From IMG/VR virus record IMGVR_UViG_3300033233_001970: a stretch of 64,000 nucleotides of DNA; one strand, given 5' to 3'. The position numbers and the translations under genes were made by a program. The notes beneath the pieces are model-generated. The model saw only the letters and a list, made by a program, of their open reading frames with translations. It had not been told where the DNA came from and did no database searches. Shown one piece after another: positions 3,390 to 63,244 of this stretch (positions within the stretch are counted from its first letter, which is position 1; every line of letters begins with the position of its first letter). The stretch comes from a virus. Lineage: Duplodnaviria > Caudoviricetes.

Positions 3390-3686
3390 ATGAGGTTTGT
3401 TTACCGCGCGGATGCAATTGTCGACATCATTCAGAAGGTCACGGGCTTTGTGCGCGATCTCGGTGTGCCGGTACGAAGCGGCTCCTTTCGCATTCACGAG
3501 GATGGATCGATTGGTCTTTTGCTTTCCGGAGAACGAAAAAAGAAGCGGTACACGATCGAGGCGTTCGACGTCGCGAACATTCGAGGCGTCCAGGGTCGCG
3601 CCGAGCTTGTGGCGCTTATTGGATCGGTTTTTCAGGGCGAGATCATCGATCCTGATGCCCGATCGGTGACCGGAGAGAAGCGATGA
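3390..3686 (+). CDS. hypothetical protein
   Basis: MRFVYRAD start inside track ORF 2958..3686; ATGA overlap to the next gene. Confidence 0.5.
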   Translation: MRFVYRADAIVDIIQKVTGFVRDLGVPVRSGSFRIHEDGSIGLLLSGERKKKRYTIEAFDVANIRGVQGRAELVALIGSVFQGEIIDPDARSVTGEKR

Positions 3687-4283
3687 CGCCCAAGGAGCGA
3701 GCGAAGGTTGAGGATCTAGATCTGAAACTTGCGATGGGCGTCGAGCAGACAACCCTCGCCGTCAGTCGCATCCTCCAGTCCGCCGTAAGGAATGAGTGGG
3801 AGAAGGTTCTCGCCGATCTCGCCTTCGCAAAAGAAGTCGCGTCGCTCTCGAAACGCAACTTCAAATCACGAATGCGTATCGCTGTTGGGCTACGGAAGAC
3901 GTCGACCAGCGAGGAGTGGAAGCGATGAGTGTTATTTGCGAGCACGGTAACTCGGCGGCCGTGTGCCGATCCTGCAACGAGCGGCGCATCGCCGCGCTCG
4001 AGGCGGAGAACGCGCGGCTCCTAGAAGCCATCGAAGGGCAAAAGGCGCTGGCGCTGTACGGCTACCAGGTACGCGACGAAGAGAACATGCGGCTTCGCGA
4101 AGCGCTGCGGGCGATTCTCGATCTCAAAGGTGCGCCGATCGAGTGTGACTGGAAAGCCGGTGTGATCGCCAGCGCGGCGCTCGCCGAACAAAAGACCAAG
4201 AAAGAAGGCGTGTGATGCGCGCAACCGATCACGAGACGGACGAAACACCTCAGCGCGCGAGCCTCGAGAAAAACGGGAAAACA

Positions 4284-4505
4284 ATGAACGCTTGTGACCA
4301 CGGCGTCATGTTCAACGAAACCGAAGCCAGAAAACTCATTGAGGGCTGGGCCGCCGCAGACGAGGTCGAGTTCATCATGGGATGCCCTGCGAGCGCCGAA
4401 GTGCGCAAACGATGGCCTCGGCTCAACGGCTCATGCCCGAAGGGCTGCGGATACGTCGGTATCGCGTACGCATCGCACGAACACTACACCTATGGAGATT
4501 GGTGA
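4284..4505 (+). CDS. small Cys/His hypothetical phage protein
   Basis: CDHG...WPRLNGSCPKGCGYVGIAYASHEHYTYGDW; coupled to the next gene. Confidence 0.6.
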   Translation: MNACDHGVMFNETEARKLIEGWAAADEVEFIMGCPASAEVRKRWPRLNGSCPKGCGYVGIAYASHEHYTYGDW

Positions 4506-5041
4506 TGGTCGATCCGCGTCGCGAAAAGAAACCCGTCAACACGCTGCCGCCATCGCCGCCGCTCCATGTGACGCTCGAGGAAGCGCGCGCGTGGCTGCGG
4601 AAGATTATGTGGCAGAAGAAAGTACCGTGCCCGTGCTGCAAACAAGATGTCAAAGTCTACAAAAGACAAATTAATCGCACGATGGCGAAAGCTCTTATTC
4701 GTCTGCACTTCTTCGATGAAGAGTGGGTGCACGTCCCGAGCGTTATCGGATTTTCAAGAATGGGCGGCGATTTCGCCAAAATGGGCTGGTTTGGGCTCGT
4801 CGAGGAAAAAGATGAGATCAAAGACGACGGCAATCCGCACGCGGGCTTTTGGCGTATTACGGAACTAGGCCGTCAATATGTGCGTGAGCAAGCGAAAGTT
4901 CCTTCTTTCATTCTGATTTACAACAACAGAGTTTTGAAATCATCGGAAGATCAGATTGGAATTCGCGACGCGCTCGGAAAGAAGTTCAACTACGACGAAT
5001 TGATGCGCGAAGCGATTGAGAGTTCGGGGAAGACGAAATAA
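4505..5041 (+). CDS. putative winged-helix DNA-binding protein with CPCC
   Basis: TGATG-coupled start; CPCC; WRITELGRQYV resembles a wHTH wing motif; stop lies 2 nt before pentamer tract 1. Confidence 0.55.
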   Translation: MVDPRREKKPVNTLPPSPPLHVTLEEARAWLRKIMWQKKVPCPCCKQDVKVYKRQINRTMAKALIRLHFFDEEWVHVPSVIGFSRMGGDFAKMGWFGLVEEKDEIKDDGNPHAGFWRITELGRQYVREQAKVPSFILIYNNRVLKSSEDQIGIRDALGKKFNYDELMREAIESSGKTK

Positions 5042-5042
5042 C

Positions 5043-5113
5043 GGCTGGGCTTGGTTTGGCTAGGCATGGCAAGTCATGGCTGGGCGCGGCGAGGCAAGGA
5101 CTCTTTAAGGGGT
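5043..5113 (+). ncRNA. GGY-NN pentamer tract 1 (11 units) plus 3' hairpin; putative guide RNA
   Basis: GGCTG GGCTT GGTTT GGCTA GGCAT GGCAA GTCAT GGCTG GGCGC GGCGA GGCAA, then GGACTCTTTAAGGGGT; intergenic. The repeat is seen directly; RNA status is inferred. Confidence 0.75.
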
Positions 5114-5124
5114 AAGGAACCATC

Positions 5125-5724
5125 ATGAAAATCACAAAATTGAAAGCAGTCATCAAAGGAATTCGTCCGCTTCTCATGCACAACGGTCGTTTGCGCGATC
5201 CGCTCGATCCGCATTCGAAAGCGCTGTCCTCGGCGGTGAAGAAGGCAAAAACGTCAAAGGCAGATGACGACATTCTAGAATCCCAGCGCACGGAGTTCAT
5301 CGGCGGTTTCTACTTCGATGAGAAGTGTGGGCCGTGCATCCCTGCCGACAACCTTCAAGCAATGCTTACCGAGGGCGCACGGAAGCGAAAGCTCGGTAAG
5401 CAAGTCGAAGCGCTGGTGCAAGTAACGGAGCCGTCTGACGGCGCTATCGGTTACAAGCTCGAATACAAGGGGTCGCGCGATCCCGAGAAGATGTTCGAGG
5501 ACGAGCGTCATCGTTTCACGAAGTCATGCAAGATCGGTCAGTCGGCGGTGATGCGAACACGCCCGCGCTTCCCCGATTGGCAACTCGCGTTCGACATCGA
5601 GATCACGGAGGGCGGCCCAACGAAGGAGCAGATCCAAGAGGCTCTCGAAGATGCGGGCTTGCTCATCGGACTCGGCGATTGGACTCCGCGTTACGGGCGA
5701 TTCGAGTTGGTGTCACTGAGCTAG
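5125..5724 (+). CDS. stand-alone Cas7/RAMP-superfamily-like RNA-binding protein
   Basis: N-terminal strand IKGIRPLLMH; PCIPADNLQAML resembles the Cas7/Csm3 PxIPxxSxKG motif; RTRPRFPDW; C-terminal Gly-rich loop GLLIGLGDWTPRYGRF; AAGGA RBS; no other cas gene nearby. Confidence 0.8.
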   Translation: MKITKLKAVIKGIRPLLMHNGRLRDPLDPHSKALSSAVKKAKTSKADDDILESQRTEFIGGFYFDEKCGPCIPADNLQAMLTEGARKRKLGKQVEALVQVTEPSDGAIGYKLEYKGSRDPEKMFEDERHRFTKSCKIGQSAVMRTRPRFPDWQLAFDIEITEGGPTKEQIQEALEDAGLLIGLGDWTPRYGRFELVSLS

Positions 5725-5727
5725 CAA

Positions 5728-5823
5728 GGCGCGGCAGGGCCGGGCACGGCATGCCGGGGCTAGGCTTGGCACGGCTCGGCTCGGCATGGCCAGGCCAGGC
5801 AGGGCAAGGACTCTTCAAAGAGT
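5728..5823 (+). ncRNA. GGY-NN pentamer tract 2 (16 units) plus 3' hairpin; putative guide RNA
   Basis: 16 pentamers at 5728-5807 (NN = GC AG CG AC AT GG TA TT AC TC TC AT CA CA AG AA; unit 6 is GCC), then GGACTCTTCAAAGAGT. Confidence 0.75.
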
Positions 5824-5840
5824 ATGCAAATGAAAATCTT

Positions 5841-5916
5841 GGCTTGGCGTGGCGCGGCGAGGCAAGACACGGCTGGGCGGGGCAAGGTCAGGCGAGGCAA
5901 GGACTCTTAAAAGAGG
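5841..5916 (+). ncRNA. GGY-NN pentamer tract 3 (12 units) plus 3' hairpin; putative guide RNA
   Basis: 12 pentamers at 5841-5900 (NN = TT GT GC GA AA AC TG GG AA CA GA AA; unit 6 is GAC, unit 10 is GGT), then GGACTCTTAAAAGAGG. Confidence 0.75.
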
Positions 5917-5922
5917 ACAATC

Positions 5923-6336
5923 ATGAACAAGAATGAAATCGACACGATCGTTATGGAAATGGTTGACGAGTTGCTCAAAGTAGAGCGATTCACTCGACAA
6001 GATTTCATGAATCGTTGGCCATACCATCCGGCCGTGTTCGGCGACCTGCTCACGCAAGCTTTCGACATTGTTCGAAACGATCATGGAATTGAGTTTCGTC
6101 CTGGTCCTTACGGTAGCGTGCAACGCGCAAATTACAAAGAGACGATCAATCGCTCGCATCGTCAGCGAAAAGCCGCGCTCAAGAAACTCGAACGAAGCGC
6201 AGCACGAGCGGACGTATCCGCGAAAATGGCTACCACAACGAAAGAGCGAGAAACAGCAGAGAAGATGGCTGATCTTCAAAAACTTCAGCTCACTGCGGCG
6301 AAAGTACGATCGCGTAAACGACTTTCGGCTGTATGA
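5923..6336 (+). CDS. accessory protein embedded in the pentamer-tract array
   Basis: 137 aa; AGAGGA RBS; basic helical C-terminal half; bracketed exactly by tracts 3 and 4. Confidence 0.75.
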   Translation: MNKNEIDTIVMEMVDELLKVERFTRQDFMNRWPYHPAVFGDLLTQAFDIVRNDHGIEFRPGPYGSVQRANYKETINRSHRQRKAALKKLERSAARADVSAKMATTTKERETAEKMADLQKLQLTAAKVRSRKRLSAV

Positions 6337-6344
6337 AATCGCAC

Positions 6345-6414
6345 GGCTTGGCCAGGCTGGGCGCGGCTGGGCGAGGCCAGGCTGGGCAAGGCAAGGCAGG
6401 GACTCTTCAAAGAG
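6345..6414 (+). ncRNA. GGY-NN pentamer tract 4 (11 units) plus 3' hairpin; putative guide RNA
   Basis: 11 perfect GGC-NN units at 6345-6399 (NN = TT CA TG GC TG GA CA TG AA AA AG), then GGACTCTTCAAAGAG. Confidence 0.75.
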
Positions 6415-6637
6415 ATTCGGCAATAAGTGAGAAGTGCTCGGGGCTGATGTGGCCGCCGATATCATATTTTACACCCGCCGAAGGCGTGGCTGCTGGAATT
6501 GCCAAGGAACGAATGGCCATCGAATCCCTCTGCCGATCCCTCCACGAGCCCGATGGACGAGTTTACGCGCTTCGTACCTTGGAGTTGATCGGCAGCAACG
6601 CCGCTGAGCGTACGCGTCGAGAAAAGTCGGAAAGGAA

Positions 6638-7273
6638 ATGAGCGACAAACCCGTCTGGCCGCGCGGTAAGCCGATCCCGAGCTTCGAAAGCTACGCGGAC
6701 GAGGTGAAGTTTTGGCACTCGTACGACTTCGATGATGGAGGCGAAGGTTGGGAAGAGGTACCGAAGGCGTGTCCGTGTCCGCAATGCCGTAAGCCAGTTG
6801 ACATCGGCCCGACACCGCCGGACCAGTGCCGCCATTGCATGATGCTGGCGACCGAGGCCGCGTCGGACGATCTCTTGATCTACTGTTTCGGTCACGAGGG
6901 CCAGTATCACGAGTTTGGTGATTCGGACTGGTCAGGGGAAACGGCCAAGCGATGGGCAAAGGCCAACAAGGTGCTGAGGCGTGCGTGGGAGCCGCCATCG
7001 GCCGGAGCGGCGCACGGGCTCGGTTTCGCTCCAGGCGAGCACGAAGAAGCCGTCGAGGACTACGAATTCGACGTCCGGTTCAACGCAAATTTGACCGATA
7101 GTCTCGCCGTTCTTCTTCGTCGCGTGCTCAAGGATGGCGAAGCCAGAGACCGCGCTGAAATCGTGAAAATCATCGAAGAACATCGTGAGAAATGGCGCAC
7201 GATGTACGAACAAGATACGACCGCTCAGATCGTCATCGGCGAGCTCGGGCGTGTGATCATGCGTATTCGTTGA
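6638..7273 (+). CDS. hypothetical protein with N-terminal antitoxin-like motif and Zn-ribbon
   Basis: AAGGA RBS; IPSFESYADEVKFWHSYD; CPQC...CRHC. Confidence 0.6.
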   Translation: MSDKPVWPRGKPIPSFESYADEVKFWHSYDFDDGGEGWEEVPKACPCPQCRKPVDIGPTPPDQCRHCMMLATEAASDDLLIYCFGHEGQYHEFGDSDWSGETAKRWAKANKVLRRAWEPPSAGAAHGLGFAPGEHEEAVEDYEFDVRFNANLTDSLAVLLRRVLKDGEARDRAEIVKIIEEHREKWRTMYEQDTTAQIVIGELGRVIMRIR

Positions 7274-9596: not shown

Positions 9597-9959
9597 ATGG
9601 GACACGCGAACACCACGAACATCAGCCAGTGCTTCAATCGACTCATTCATCGTGGCGGCGTATCGGTCCGTGAATGCATCGAAGAGCTCAAGCGGCGTGG
9701 CGAAGCGGTTCACGCTTCAGAGGGAGATCTGGACGAGCCCTACATGCTCGGCATGGTCGTCGAGCAGATTGTTTCGTGTCTTTTCGAGGAATGCCTCATC
9801 GAGCCGATCGATTTGACACGCAAACAGAAAGCCATCTTCAACGCTTGGAAGCGTGAAGAAAACGGAGATTGGGACAGCGGAGACGATGGCGACGGAGGCG
9901 AGTACGGAATTTTCGATTCCATCAAGTGGCGGGCCACAATTCGTTATTTGGAAAACTGA
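9597..9959 (+). CDS. hypothetical protein
   Basis: Fills the gap; TGATG-coupled to the ARH gene. Confidence 0.55.
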   Translation: MGHANTTNISQCFNRLIHRGGVSVRECIEELKRRGEAVHASEGDLDEPYMLGMVVEQIVSCLFEECLIEPIDLTRKQKAIFNAWKREENGDWDSGDDGDGGEYGIFDSIKWRATIRYLEN

Positions 9960-10852
9960 TGAAACACCCGAACCCACTCATGCTCGTTCGGATCGCGCAA
10001 GGCGATGCTTACGGTCTCGCGACCGAATACATCAAGTTCCCGAGAGACCAGGCCATCTACGACAAGGCGCTGAAGTTCGAGTCGTACGGCCAACATCCGA
10101 CGCATTCGCTCAAGCCTGGCTGCTACAGCGATGACACGCAGATGTCGATCGGTGTGACGGAGGTGCTGCTCGAAGAAGAGGGTTACTTCGTGCTCACCAG
10201 TCGTTTCGCTGAAGCGTTCGTGCGCTGTTTCAAGCGCGATCCGCGCGATGGCTATGCGCGAGGTTTCCAAGCGTTCCTTGAGACGGTCAAAGACGGATCG
10301 GACTTCATCGCGAGGATCGATCCAAAATCCGACAAGAACGGCGCGGCCATGCGTTCGGTGCCGCTCGGCGTGCTCGCGGATCCCATTCATGTGCGGTACA
10401 TGGCCAACCTCCAGGCGAAGCTCACGCACGACACGTTGCAGGGCGTGGAGTCGTCGATTCTCGTGGCGCTGATGAGTCACTTCGCCCTTCACACGGACGA
10501 ACCATTGAGCCGTCTTCCCGAGTGGCTAGAAAAGCAATTACCTGCCATAGTGCCGAGATTCATCGCGCCCTGGGAAGGAGGTCCGGTGAAGGTTCCAGAA
10601 GTTGGCATCAACACGGCGCGTGCTGTGATGACGCTTCTCGCGACGGAGACGAGCCTGATTGGCATCGCGAAGCGAACGATCGAGTGGGGTGGCGACACCG
10701 ATTCCGTGCTCGCGGTCGCGTGGGGCATCGCGAGCGCGCGTTTTCAGAACGAGCAGCTTCCGATGTTCTTTGACGGCGGGCTCGAGAATGGTCCGTATGG
10801 ATACAAATTCCTGAAAGAGCTCGGCACCAAGCTCATGGGGAAATATGCATGA
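9959..10852 (+). CDS. ADP-ribosylglycohydrolase (DraG/ARH family)
   Basis: Family motifs GDAYG, SDDTQMS, NGAAMR, LTH and GGDTDS are all present in order. Confidence 0.92.
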   Translation: MKHPNPLMLVRIAQGDAYGLATEYIKFPRDQAIYDKALKFESYGQHPTHSLKPGCYSDDTQMSIGVTEVLLEEEGYFVLTSRFAEAFVRCFKRDPRDGYARGFQAFLETVKDGSDFIARIDPKSDKNGAAMRSVPLGVLADPIHVRYMANLQAKLTHDTLQGVESSILVALMSHFALHTDEPLSRLPEWLEKQLPAIVPRFIAPWEGGPVKVPEVGINTARAVMTLLATETSLIGIAKRTIEWGGDTDSVLAVAWGIASARFQNEQLPMFFDGGLENGPYGYKFLKELGTKLMGKYA

Positions 10853-32935: not shown

Positions 32936-33132
32936 CGAATGAGAACGGGGTGTAAAGCGCGCGTTGCAGATCACACGGACACCGTGGACTGTGGTGATTC
33001 CGTTCTGCGCGCGGAACGATGTGCCGTGCATCTGCACGAAGAGGTGGACGATCTTCGGCGCGAGATTCATGAGCACGAAGAAGCTATCGTCAAATGCCGA
33101 TCGCGGCTCGCTCAACTTCAAACGGAATCGGG

Positions 33133-34356
33133 ATGACGCAAATGGCAGCGAAACTGTCCGACCTCGCCGTTTTTCGTAACGAGCACCTTAGCGTCTCAAG
33201 GTTGCGGCTTTACGAGCAATGCCCGCGCGCTTTTTACTTCCGGTACGTCAACAAAGGAGAGACCGCGCCGCGCGGTGAAGCCGCCGCGTTTGGTACCGCG
33301 CTACACGCCGCGCTCGAGCTCATCTATCAATGGATCATCCGCGAGGAATACTCCGGACTTTTCCCGATGGATCAGCTCGTCGAGTGTTATCGGCAGGCGT
33401 GGCAGGAGAGCAAGCTTACCGATGTAGCCATGTATCAAGAAGGGCTCCAGATCCTTCGCATGTACGCGCGCTCGCGCGGTCCGATTGATCATTTCAGCAT
33501 CCTTGCCACCGAGCAAGAATTCAACGTCGATGTCGATGGATTTGTAATGAATGGGTACATCGATCGTGTCGACAAGGTCGATGACGACGCTCTGAAGATT
33601 GTAGATTTCAAGTCGAACCGAAAGCTCTACTCAAGAAACGAGCTCGACAGCGATCTTCAGATGAGTGTGTACGGCATCGCCGCGCGCCATCTGTATCCGT
33701 GGGCCAAGCGTGTGACTTTTGAATTCCACATGCTGCGCTTCGATGTCATCCAAAAAACGGAGCGTACGTCTCAGCAGATCGATGACGCTCGCGGATACGT
33801 CGTGTCCCTCGGACGTCAGACCGAATCCGACACGACCTGGGAACCTCGGCTCAACGAAAACTGCGCGTACTGCGACCACAGGAGACGTTGCGACGCGTAC
33901 GCGAAGGCCGTCCAAGGAAAAGCCGACATCACGAAAGTGGTCGACCCGAACGACCTCACACAGATCGCCAAGGAGCGCGCCGAGGTCGCACGGCTCGCAA
34001 AAATGATGTACGCGCGCCAGAGGGAGCTTGACGATATTTTGAAAGCCAAGCTCAAAGAAGAGGGCGAGTACGACGTCGGCAGCTTCCATGTTCGTTACAT
34101 CAACTCGTTCGAGAGGTCGTACCCGATCGCGAGAACCATTCAGATTTTTGAACGGGTGGGTGTACCGCGCGAAGAAATCGAGAGACGGATTCTTACGGTT
34201 GACAAGGACGCTGTGAGTGATTTGCGTATCTCAGTCACGGAGAAACTCGAGCGCGGACCCGCGCTTCTTCTCAAAGCCGAGCTCGAGGCCGTCGAGGAAA
34301 AGACGCCAGGAACGCCAAGGCTCGACGTGCAGACGATCAGGGGGAACAAGAAATGA
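33133..34356 (+). CDS. PD-(D/E)XK nuclease, RecB/AddB/Cas4-like with four-Cys cluster motif
   Basis: SVSRL..YEQCPR, FGTALH, GYIDRVD, IVDFKS, QMSVY, CAYCDHRRRC. Confidence 0.9.
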   Translation: MTQMAAKLSDLAVFRNEHLSVSRLRLYEQCPRAFYFRYVNKGETAPRGEAAAFGTALHAALELIYQWIIREEYSGLFPMDQLVECYRQAWQESKLTDVAMYQEGLQILRMYARSRGPIDHFSILATEQEFNVDVDGFVMNGYIDRVDKVDDDALKIVDFKSNRKLYSRNELDSDLQMSVYGIAARHLYPWAKRVTFEFHMLRFDVIQKTERTSQQIDDARGYVVSLGRQTESDTTWEPRLNENCAYCDHRRRCDAYAKAVQGKADITKVVDPNDLTQIAKERAEVARLAKMMYARQRELDDILKAKLKEEGEYDVGSFHVRYINSFERSYPIARTIQIFERVGVPREEIERRILTVDKDAVSDLRISVTEKLERGPALLLKAELEAVEEKTPGTPRLDVQTIRGNKK

Positions 34357-37823: not shown

Positions 37824-38981
37824 TCATGACAAATGACCCAGTGCAGCGAAGACCATTCCCATCATCGACCAGTCTGTCATCGGACTCCTGAGCAAATCCG
37901 CGACGCGAACGATCTCGATGTACGTACGCTCGGTATCGCTTTCGACGCCGCGAACCTTTCCGGATGCCGCGTCCTTGCGCAGTTGAACCATTTCGTCGCA
38001 CGTGAGCTCGGCCGCGAGAAGTGTTCCACTGAAGGACGAAAGCGTTCCGGCGAGCTGACGTGTGCCGATTTCTCGGAGGCGAGATGGACGAAGCAGGAGA
38101 CCGACTTCTTCGTAAACCTCTTCGACGGCGGTCTGAAACGCAGGCTTCGAAGATTTGGAGGAGCCTCCAGGGAGCTCGTGAATGAATCCGTCCGGCGTCC
38201 GCGCGGGCGATCGGAATTCTTTGATGAGTACGATCTCGGTATCGAGAAAGCTGGCTCCGGGATGCCATAAAAGAACAGTTGCGATATCGGTTCGGCCGAA
38301 CACGAATTCGTTCTTCTTGTTTCGGTTCTCGGATTTCACAAATACGTCAACGTGAGCGACCCATGAAAATACGAAATTTTTCTGTGGGCCGACACGAAAC
38401 GTCCAGCAAATTCTTGCGCCGTCAAGACGGTTGCCGGCATCTTGCTGAGCTCGGTACCACGCCTGAAACGACTCGAGCTTCCAGATGAAAAGCGGAACTT
38501 GGCATTCGCCGCCGACACGTCGAGCTCCTGGCTGTACGCGTTCGACGGCGGCTCGCAAGGTGTCACGAAGATTTCTGAATGACGGGACGCCAAACTTGGC
38601 AGCGTAAGCTTCCTGGTAGCGAACACTTTGGGCTTCGTTCGGCGCGCCGAACACGACCTTGCCGGAATTTTTCCACGCACCCCATTCGTCGTTGGTCGTG
38701 AGCGCCGGCATTTTCGACATCTCGCGCGGCACCCAGAAGACGATGCAGTCGGCGCGGTGAAGACCCTCTTCTTCCCATCCGATCTGATCGTTGTAGTCGC
38801 CTTTGTAATCTCCCGTTCGATCCTCGGGAACGAAGATGTGACCCTTGAAATCCATTTCCTGGAACAGACGAATGGCTTCCGATCGCCAGCTCGGAAATTT
38901 ATCGCGTGGCGTCGGGCCGGCAAGAAAGATGGTGGACTCGACGTCGCTAGGGAACGGCTCACGCGCGTAGATGATGTTCAT
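37824..38981 (-). CDS. nucleoside 2-deoxyribosyltransferase-like domain fused to a NUDIX hydrolase
   Basis: N-terminus IFLAGPTPR..SWR..QIGWE..ADCIVFW..TTNDEWG; C-terminus EFRSP..ELPGGS..TAVEEVYEEVGL (NUDIX box variant). Confidence 0.85.
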   Translation of the reverse strand: MNIIYAREPFPSDVESTIFLAGPTPRDKFPSWRSEAIRLFQEMDFKGHIFVPEDRTGDYKGDYNDQIGWEEEGLHRADCIVFWVPREMSKMPALTTNDEWGAWKNSGKVVFGAPNEAQSVRYQEAYAAKFGVPSFRNLRDTLRAAVERVQPGARRVGGECQVPLFIWKLESFQAWYRAQQDAGNRLDGARICWTFRVGPQKNFVFSWVAHVDVFVKSENRNKKNEFVFGRTDIATVLLWHPGASFLDTEIVLIKEFRSPARTPDGFIHELPGGSSKSSKPAFQTAVEEVYEEVGLLLRPSRLREIGTRQLAGTLSSFSGTLLAAELTCDEMVQLRKDAASGKVRGVESDTERTYIEIVRVADLLRSPMTDWSMMGMVFAALGHLS

Positions 38982-56711: not shown

Positions 56712-57134
56712 TCACCCGTACCGAATTTCGCCGAGGAGTGCGAGCTGCACGACAACGTCCTCACGTATGGAGTCGACGCCTTCGTACCACTCGACGCCCC
56801 ACCGCTTCACGCCCTCGTGCCACGCCTTGATGGCGGCGGCCTTATCGAGACGAAACCACTTGTCGGGAAGAGGTTTGCCCTCACGCCATGCTTTGAGGAT
56901 GGCTTCGTATTCGGGGTGCCGTTCCGCGACATCGCGCGCGCTTCTGTAGATCGCGCCATCGTCGTGCTCGAAACAGAGCCAACCACGATCCTGCGTGCGC
57001 TCCATTCCCATCATCCAATAGCCGCAGTAATTGTAGCCGAAGATATCCGTATTTTGAGTGAGGTACGGCACCCAAAGGGGATCGATTTCGGTTTCGATCG
57101 TGACGGTTGTGATGAGCTTTTTGACGGCGTTCAT
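56712..57134 (-). CDS. hypothetical phage protein
   Basis: Coupled ORF ending DVVVQLALLGEIRYG. Confidence 0.7.
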   Translation of the reverse strand: MNAVKKLITTVTIETEIDPLWVPYLTQNTDIFGYNYCGYWMMGMERTQDRGWLCFEHDDGAIYRSARDVAERHPEYEAILKAWREGKPLPDKWFRLDKAAAIKAWHEGVKRWGVEWYEGVDSIREDVVVQLALLGEIRYG

Positions 57135-62169: not shown

Positions 62170-62991
62170 TCACGATGCCGACTTCTTCTTTTCCAGCGAC
62201 CGCATGAGAAGCTCGGCGAGATCGACGACGCCGACGCTCGCGATCCCAGGCCCCTTCGCCGCAGAGGGCACGCCATCGCCCGCGCCGTCCACGATATCGC
62301 CCGCCGCCGCCTTGGCGTCCGCCGCTTCTTCGACGGAAGCGCGGTAGGTATCGATGAGCTTTGTGGGATCGAATGCCGAGGTCAATTCGTCCACGAGCTT
62401 CTCGGCCATTTCACGCTCACGCTCGGTGATGTTTTTGACATCGGGTCGCGCCAGCGTTTCCGAGCTCACGATTTCTTCCGGGTAGCGCATCGTTTCGATG
62501 GCGAAAAATCCGTCCCTTGCACGCAAAAGACCGAGCCTTGGTTTTGTCCGTAATTTGATCTTCACGAGCGCAGCGCGCCCCGTGTCCGCCAAAACCATCC
62601 GCAAAAGCTCGAAACCTCGAGCGCTCTTCGGACTCTTTCCGCCCGGAGCGATCCAATAGCTTTTCTCGAAGTACGCGGAATCGACCTCGTTTGGATCGAC
62701 GAACTGCACGATTTCGATCGAGCCTTTCGTCTCCTCGCCGCCATCCATTTCGGCAAGCTCTTCTTTCGTGAAGAAAGCGTACTTGCCATCGCCGATCTCG
62801 TAGCCCTTACCAATCTCCTCCCACGGCACATCGACCGCGCAGGATGCGCAGCGCCGGATCAGATTGATCCGCGTTCCACAAATGGTGTGAAGCTGGTTGA
62901 ACTTCGGGGCGAGATCCTTCGTCGCGCTGTAGAGCTTGACGGGGATCGTCACCATTCCAAACACGATGTCTCCGGTCCAAAATGCTCTCAT
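62170..62991 (-). CDS. ku: Ku DNA end-binding protein (NHEJ)
   Basis: MRAFWTGDIVFGMVTIPVKLYSAT...FNQLH...EIGKGYE...IEIVQFV...YFEKSYW...VVDLAELLMRSL; AAGGAG RBS. Confidence 0.95.
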   Translation of the reverse strand: MRAFWTGDIVFGMVTIPVKLYSATKDLAPKFNQLHTICGTRINLIRRCASCAVDVPWEEIGKGYEIGDGKYAFFTKEELAEMDGGEETKGSIEIVQFVDPNEVDSAYFEKSYWIAPGGKSPKSARGFELLRMVLADTGRAALVKIKLRTKPRLGLLRARDGFFAIETMRYPEEIVSSETLARPDVKNITEREREMAEKLVDELTSAFDPTKLIDTYRASVEEAADAKAAAGDIVDGAGDGVPSAAKGPGIASVGVVDLAELLMRSLEKKKSAS

Positions 62992-63244
62992 TGGTTTTCT
63001 CCTTCGCTTTTTCCCAATGCGCTTTCGATGACGTGAGCGACGCGCTTTTCGAGATTCTTGATTTCTCGGTAGTACGCCTCTCGCGCCCGACTGAACTCGT
63101 CGTATTTTTCGCGATTTTGCGTTCCGTCTTCGTTTGTGACGCCAGCGTCGTTCGGGAACGTCGGCCATACGAGTCCGCGCACGGTGCAGCGCACGTCGGC
63201 GCCTCCGTCTGCGTGAAGCTTTACGAAGCAAACTTGATCGATTT

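Follow-up and report, generated by a model that had tools for sequence, protein, structure and literature searches.

The window, i.e. the whole 64,000-nt stretch of DNA analysed, is part of a large (246-kb) uncultivated phage contig from a sediment metagenome. Reading positions 4500-7000 together with a regular-expression scan of both strands returned four GGYNN tracts of period 5 (T1 to T4), all on the + strand, with 11, 16, 12 and 11 units, respectively; these counts allow one degenerate unit inside each of T1, T2 and T3. Two genes lie between the tracts, corresponding to the ordering: T1-vipr-T2-T3-accessory gene-T4. The repeat tract of the putative vrRNA1 (T1, 5043-5097, 11 units, the degenerate one being GTCAT) begins 2 nt past the stop codon of the upstream gene and is followed by a 3' tail (5098-5113) made of GG and a short hairpin (ACUCU/GGGGU, with G-U pairs). 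This tail directly precedes the ribosome-binding site of the gene annotated here as vipr (5125-5724, + strand), T1 occupying the leader of vipr itself. Next come the repeat tract of vrRNA2 (T2, 5728-5807, 16 units, GCCGG degenerate) with its tail hairpin (5808-5823, ACUCU-UCAA-AGAGU) and that of vrRNA3 (T3, 5841-5900, 12 units, GACAC degenerate) with its tail hairpin (5901-5916), whose 3' arm AGAGGA is also the Shine-Dalgarno-like sequence of the following gene. The latter, a vap-like accessory gene (5923-6336, + strand), encodes 137 residues predicted to form a winged-helix N-terminal domain and a long helical hairpin. The repeat tract of vrRNA4 (T4, 6345-6399, 11 units, GGC perfect throughout) and its tail hairpin (6400-6415) close the locus. 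The starts of T1, T2 and T4 are found 2 to 9 nt past a stop codon, and tails adjoin or overlap the ribosome-binding sites of the genes at 5125 and 5923.

No further run of at least 4 perfect GGYNN units was present on either strand of the 64-kb window. When imperfect units were allowed, one extra run of six units, two of them imperfect, appeared on the - strand (56784-56813). Neither a promoter-like site within the locus nor a terminator-like site on the guide strand could be detected; since the locus has no promoter-like site, guides would need to be processed from a longer transcript. Rfam searches of the window and of three related arrays returned no family. Tandem Repeats Finder detected no CRISPR repeat-spacer array (repeats of about 25-40 bp) in the window, and no Pfam match to cas genes was obtained among the neighbouring genes. 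The content of the window is of phage type: numerous small ORFs without known function accompany genes for an HNH endonuclease, a PD-(D/E)XK exonuclease and Ku. Accessory genes typical of large phages are seen at 9869-10852, 33094-34356, 37824-38981 and 62170-63231, coding respectively for an ADP-ribosylglycohydrolase, the PD-(D/E)XK exonuclease, a nucleoside 2-deoxyribosyltransferase-NUDIX fusion and the Ku-like end-binding protein.

The GGY triplet is kept in 47 of the 50 units, the three degenerate units being the only exceptions, and the NN positions take 14 of the 16 possible values, their entropy being 3.60 out of 4 bits; the commonest unit is GGCAA and the commonest NN is AA. An earlier note, made from the raw sequence, had listed these four tracts with their NN strings and counts, and our parse returned exactly the same strings. 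It had also remarked that CC and CT are never used. This is true of the 50 units of the window; in relatives, however, 58 of 805 units (7.2%) carry one of these two dinucleotides, and the chance of finding none in 50 units is about 0.024. We attribute the absence of CC and CT to the small sample, on top of a general scarcity of C at the first variable position (N4, 14%). The bases at the two variable positions, N4 and N5, depend on each other (chi-square p=0.004), and TA reaches only 0.53 of its expectation. This dinucleotide is palindromic and, as the first two bases of a codon, can only specify Tyr or a stop. Together, the N4-N5 dependence and the TA depletion give a weak and unspecific hint that would fit codon-phased targets.

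A second trait of the NN strings concerns their 3' ends. The last two units are purine-only in all 4 tracts of the window, which the earlier note had taken for a constant handle. A set of 71 unique tracts of relatives (19 loci, 8-16 units per tract, 88% GGY, NN entropy of 3.85 bits) served for comparison. Of these, 48 (68%) end in a purine-only unit, whereas 33% of interior units are purine-only (Fisher p=3e-8); for the penultimate unit the count is 38 (54%, p=9e-4). The purine ends are a family-wide bias, but at these frequencies they do not form a constant handle. In the ternary structure, as described in the available text, all twelve units are in register with the target (10.64898/2026.04.26.720927), so that the bias may come from a constraint where the tract meets the tail rather than from an unread handle.

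The tail itself is a recurrent element. Each of T1 to T4 runs directly into GGACUCUU-loop-AGAG, forming a short hairpin whose stem was found in the MFE folds of all four. In a set of 17 tails of the clade, obtained after exclusion of four tails whose loop is shorter by one base and of two false picks in L031, the central stem pair was GC in 8, UA in 4, CG in 3, AU in 1 and UG in 1, and was never unpaired. The covariation score was 0.366; shuffles gave 0.119, none of 500 reaching the observed value, and slid partners did not exceed 0.10. The tail hairpin is a genuine, covarying RNA structure. The naked-RNA folds of T2 to T4 (5725-5830, 5836-5922 and 6340-6420) were also stabler than their shuffles (z of -2.2 to -3.4), because units of the GGC/GCC type pair with one another.

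The product of the gene between T1 and T2 is a 199-aa single-RRM RAMP (Cas7-like). It matched phrog_4652 (8.5e-45) and no Pfam family. The AF2 model, built from 53 homologues, has a pLDDT of 96.7, and the top structural matches obtained with Foldseek and with the Foldseek-independent VIA were all Cas7-family RAMPs (Csm3, Cmr4, gRAMP, type VII and type IV), the highest Z being 10.5 across the whole chain (residues 1-199).

Such a protein next to GGYNN tracts has been described. Two 2026 preprints from one laboratory (10.64898/2026.04.26.720920 and 10.64898/2026.04.26.720927), cited here for the parts of their text available, define VIPR (Viral Interference Programmable Repeat), a CRISPR-related, phage-borne and RNA-guided DNA silencer made of the RAMP protein Vipr, an accessory vap gene and vrRNAs with 9-16 GGY/NN pentamers and an invariable 3' tail (10.64898/2026.04.26.720920). 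According to that text, double-stranded DNA is recognised through the NN dinucleotides, one target base being skipped for each unit, usually at the wobble position of a codon, a rule drawn from pangenome searches, competition binding and GFP silencing; under competition, binding was limited to 1-nt-skip targets, and changing NN alone reprogrammed the guides and retargeted silencing (10.64898/2026.04.26.720920). The natural targets reported are competing phages, satellites and prophages (10.64898/2026.04.26.720920). Further traits of VIPR are vrRNAs expressed as RNAs of about 100 nt that co-purify with Vipr, and natural targets matched at 80% or more of NN under the 1-nt skip. In the cryo-EM structure, one protomer covers each repeat and each GGY is flipped out and held by the protein, G1 by H17 and D177, G2 by R138 and W178 and Y3 in a pocket that includes R179, while the skipped base of the target lies between thumb and a helical bundle (10.64898/2026.04.26.720927).

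We compared these contacts with the protein of the window through the homologue of phage wV8, in which 9 of the 10 listed residues of the SUSP1 Vipr occur at the same numbers (V175 replaces T175), including the guanine contacts H17, R138, D177 and W178 and the target backbone contact K33; the wV8 protein was therefore used as a proxy for SUSP1 Vipr. Residues H19, R146, D185 and W186 of the window protein align to H17, R138, D177 and W178, which contact the two guanines in SUSP1, and H19 and R146 are invariant across the 53 homologues. The pyrimidine contact R179 corresponds to T187, and K33 aligns to S35. Threonine at the R179 position is common to the 82% and 76% identical relatives, both of which have full arrays.

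Homologues of the protein span 33-82% identity and include those of cultured E. coli, Pseudomonas, Gordonia and Mycobacterium phages, i.e. Felixounavirus such as wV8, Pseudomonas LESphi2 and Medea1, Gordonia Trine and Mycobacterium LittleE. In wV8, LESphi2, Medea1 and LittleE, tracts and hairpins are located in the intergenic DNA beside the vipr homologue, GGT standing in place of GGC in the AT-rich E. coli phage wV8. In the latter (L018:2759-2816 and 4152-4209), the direct repeats recorded as 'DR_4' coincide with the tract ends and tails flanking the vipr-vap pair, which means that the wV8 guide tails were annotated years ago as plain repeats. In Trine, the tracts (3628-3687 and 3752-3796) fall within the annotated coding sequence of gp40 (L020:3585-4388, 267 aa), and the homologous accessory proteins have 146-188 aa; the 5' part of gp40 may in reality be guide-RNA DNA. 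A scan of viral contigs for four units followed by the hairpin start also yielded ten contigs with tandem arrays, each array unit comprising 7-16 pentamers and a constant module of about 35 nt, with up to seven units in tandem; relatives have 5-9 tandem guides that are not each followed by a gene. In 9 of these 10 contigs, all nine from IMG/VR, a vipr homologue with 37-41% identity was found directly upstream of the array, on the same strand.

Beside the 82% and 76% identical homologues, one tract or more precedes the gene and four to six follow it, again with hairpins. The NN strings of both are unrelated to those of the window, and those of the 82% identical relative differ from them entirely. 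Two related loci, L001 and L004, have one guide in common with three differences, all at NN positions, and the guides adjacent to it have been gained or lost whole. Turnover of whole units together with NN point changes fits guides tracking changing targets. In L004:5563-5612, L006:2272-2321 and L009:8542-8591, the last tract before a conserved gene (MQFSDD...) carries an identical NN string in arrays that otherwise differ. This tract has no usual tail and continues into the ribosome-binding site; it may represent either a guide under conservation or a leader with a regulatory role.

The accessory gene is kept after vipr in L014, L015, L029 and L031 with 27-69% identity. Its protein was modelled as a winged-helix-like domain and a long helical hairpin (pLDDT 88.6) and gave weak winged-helix matches (best E-value 0.01). 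No similarity to SUSP1-type vap was detectable (hhalign probability 2%).

From these data we regard it as very probable that the region is a VIPR locus and that T1 to T4 are guide RNAs read by their NN dinucleotides with a 1-nt skip. The assignment rests on the fold, the G-binding residues, the repeat architecture, the covariation of the tail and the linkage of gene to array. RNP formation, the 1-nt skip, reprogrammability and silencing have been demonstrated in homologues by the preprints; by analogy, T1 to T4 would be expressed, cut from an operon transcript and read by the same skip rule. The gapped-code mechanism is already published, and the window is an added VIPR locus.

The proposed sequence of events would be as follows. 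Guides would be cut out of the operon transcript, the short covarying hairpin capping the 3' end of each of them. Vipr would polymerise along each vrRNA with one protomer per pentamer, burying GGY and presenting the two N bases. Pairing of the NN dinucleotides with target DNA would follow, passing over every third base of the target (xNN), in most cases the wobble base of a codon, and the bound complex would silence transcription of a competitor, be it a phage, a prophage or a satellite. The earlier note had anticipated that the NN positions jointly specify a target and are read as NN-x-NN-x, tolerating changes at wobble positions. This agrees with the VIPR mechanism as given in the text of the 2026 preprints and would hold here by homology (about 33% identity to the characterised SUSP1-clade protein); a reading of the raw sequence alone had recovered the logic of a non-contiguous RNA guide. 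Its alternative of a contiguous reading, with no skipped base, is contradicted by the published assays in the text available (10.64898/2026.04.26.720920).

The closest known systems are the Type II VIPRs of Escherichia phage SUSP1 and of a Pseudomonas fulva prophage. Both sides are phage-borne and encode a single-RRM RAMP of about 20 kDa in which the His, Arg, Asp and Trp that contact G are conserved. Their guides comprise 9-16 GGY/NN pentamers closed by a structured 3' tail, and one of the guides precedes vipr whereas several follow it. A small accessory gene is present on both sides, and a self-target was detected on neither. However, the protein of the window is only about 33% identical to SUSP1 Vipr and has T in place of R179 in the pyrimidine pocket; the SUSP1 tail is a pseudoknot whereas the tail of the window, as read from the MFE folds, is a hairpin of about 15 nt and 4-5 bp. 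Guides are moreover inserted between vipr and the accessory gene, with another one after the latter, and the accessory protein is from another sequence family, predicted to combine a winged-helix-like domain with a helical hairpin. This environmental large-phage locus adds to VIPR a minimal hairpin tail, gene-interleaved guides and a different accessory family; such variants help define the essential parts of VIPR and could offer smaller scaffolds for programmable DNA binding.

Class 1 CRISPR Cas7 filaments (Csm3/Cmr4 of type III, and types I, IV and VII) have in common with the window protein the RAMP fold, the G-loop and the thumb, as well as one protomer per short RNA segment and periodic base flipping. 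In contrast to class 1 CRISPR, the locus has neither a repeat-spacer array nor other cas genes, and the RNA period differs: 5 nt in VIPR, with three guide bases sequestered and a non-contiguous guide, against 6 nt and one flipped base in CRISPR.

Target searches were carried out at several scales. Both strands of the window were searched with T1 to T4 at gaps of 0 to 3, using 200 shuffles of the NN order each, and no self-target was found beyond chance, in line with the earlier note, which had seen none by eye. The best 1-nt-skip match (16/22) was inside the shuffle range, no self-target was present in the window at 80% NN, and the lowest shuffle fraction was 0.045 (T4, gap 3), in one of 16 tests. 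Consistently, none of the published guides is reported in the available text to match its own contig at 80% NN (10.64898/2026.04.26.720920). A cross-search of 72 unique guides against 0.25 Mb of related loci gave no gap rule that beat the shuffles. Compared with the codon usage of the window, the wobble phase of the NN strings had a likelihood slightly better than the two other phases, and none of the three beat a uniform model. A search for targets at the protein level was discarded, T2 being the only guide that can be decoded far enough into a degenerate peptide and chance 9-mer matches being expected among 5.8 billion proteins.

Three public collections were scanned with exact 1-nt-skip seeds of 9-10 units, i.e. 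18-20 specified bases. In viral contigs, T3 and T4 seeds gave no match, and T1 and T2 gave one match each, both discarded as extension failed (1/4 and 3/14 further bases); the T1 match (L023) was not wobble-phased. In genome contigs no match was obtained for T2 and T3 seeds. Four T4 matches, two in genome contigs and two in metagenome contigs, were rejected as well, their number being about that expected by chance according to our estimate. They sit in MAG or environmental contigs without evident link to the phage of the window, and the only one of the four with a clear frame (L025) was not wobble-phased. Seeds from control guides of LESphi2 and wV8 (SUSP1 clade), taken as relatives of the two characterised systems, found no match in viral contigs either. 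As the control guides also came up blank, the exact-seed method is too insensitive for blanks to count against the code. Over the window, the 0.25 Mb of related loci and the three collections, the gap-model test proposed earlier thus returned nothing above background at this low power. Nothing in the analysis supports the further suggestion that T1, being AT-rich, could match a promoter-like target. Identification of a target would show which competitor the phage silences.

The points counted against the VIPR reading are that no target of T1 to T4 was found under any gap model, that R179 and K33 are replaced by T187 and S35, that the tail is a 4-5 bp hairpin in place of the SUSP1 pseudoknot, that the accessory gene has no detectable similarity to SUSP1-type vap, and that a promoter-like site is lacking within the locus; the VIPR mechanism also rests on two preprints from one laboratory. 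Other readings were weighed in this light. It is conceivable, if rather unlikely, that the 3'-terminal purine-rich unit or units and the hairpin form a fixed loading or capping module outside the read code and that Vipr loading or guide processing sets the translation of vipr and of the accessory gene. Such an effect could arise because the hairpins abut the vipr ribosome-binding site and overlap that of the accessory gene. A translational feedback loop of this kind on vipr and the accessory gene is not described in the available text of the two VIPR preprints.

The same positions of the tails, and that of T1 in the vipr leader, could also be read in terms of a periodic protein-binding scaffold with NN as an unconstrained spacer, serving in autoregulation of vipr and of the next gene or as an RNA decoy. 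The model would be TRAP with the trp leader RNA (11 G/UAG triplets with spacers of 2-3 nt), in which a protein multimer likewise reads a triplet about every 5 nt between variable spacers; near-maximal NN entropy and the lack of a T1-T4 target in the searches made would suit it. TRAP differs in having an unrelated protein fold, the window protein being of the RAMP fold, and its spacers are uninformative whereas those of VIPR determine specificity. We hold this scaffold improbable: in homologous systems, according to the text of the preprints, an NN change alone retargets silencing and only 1-nt-skip targets are bound in competition; N4 and N5 are not independent here and TA stands at 0.53 of expectation; and leader regulation fails to explain the 5-9 tandem guides of relatives, which are not each followed by a gene.

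Still less probable is that VIPR survives here as a degenerate or orphan remnant and that its guides have lost their matches. The three degenerate units, the replaced R179 and the blank target searches would agree with decay, but vipr and the accessory gene are intact and conserved, 47 of the 50 units are perfect, and T at the R179 position is shared with the 82% and 76% identical relatives, which have full arrays. Finally, a structural role, either as two-tier G-quadruplexes from GG-N3, for which GG every 5 nt would be suited, or as a (GGCAA)n template of adenine-specific diversity-generating mutagenesis, as the frequent GGCAA units and AA dinucleotides might evoke, is hardly credible since GGY is flipped out and protein-held in the cryo-EM structure as described in the available text (10.64898/2026.04.26.720927), each N position takes all four bases, Y may be C or T, and DGR variable repeats are parts of genes, unlike the non-coding tracts.

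An ATG-initiated ORF of 102 aa (6333-6641) runs through T4, so that a gene caller could take the guide for coding sequence; the true gene downstream of T4 more likely begins at 6447. Similarly, a 27-codon ORF (5826-5909) extends from after the T2 hairpin through T3 and ends at a TAA in the loop of the T3 hairpin; it is probably fortuitous. Among the relatives, one guide (L032:10694-10773) contains six consecutive GGY-CA units and looks like a slippage expansion.
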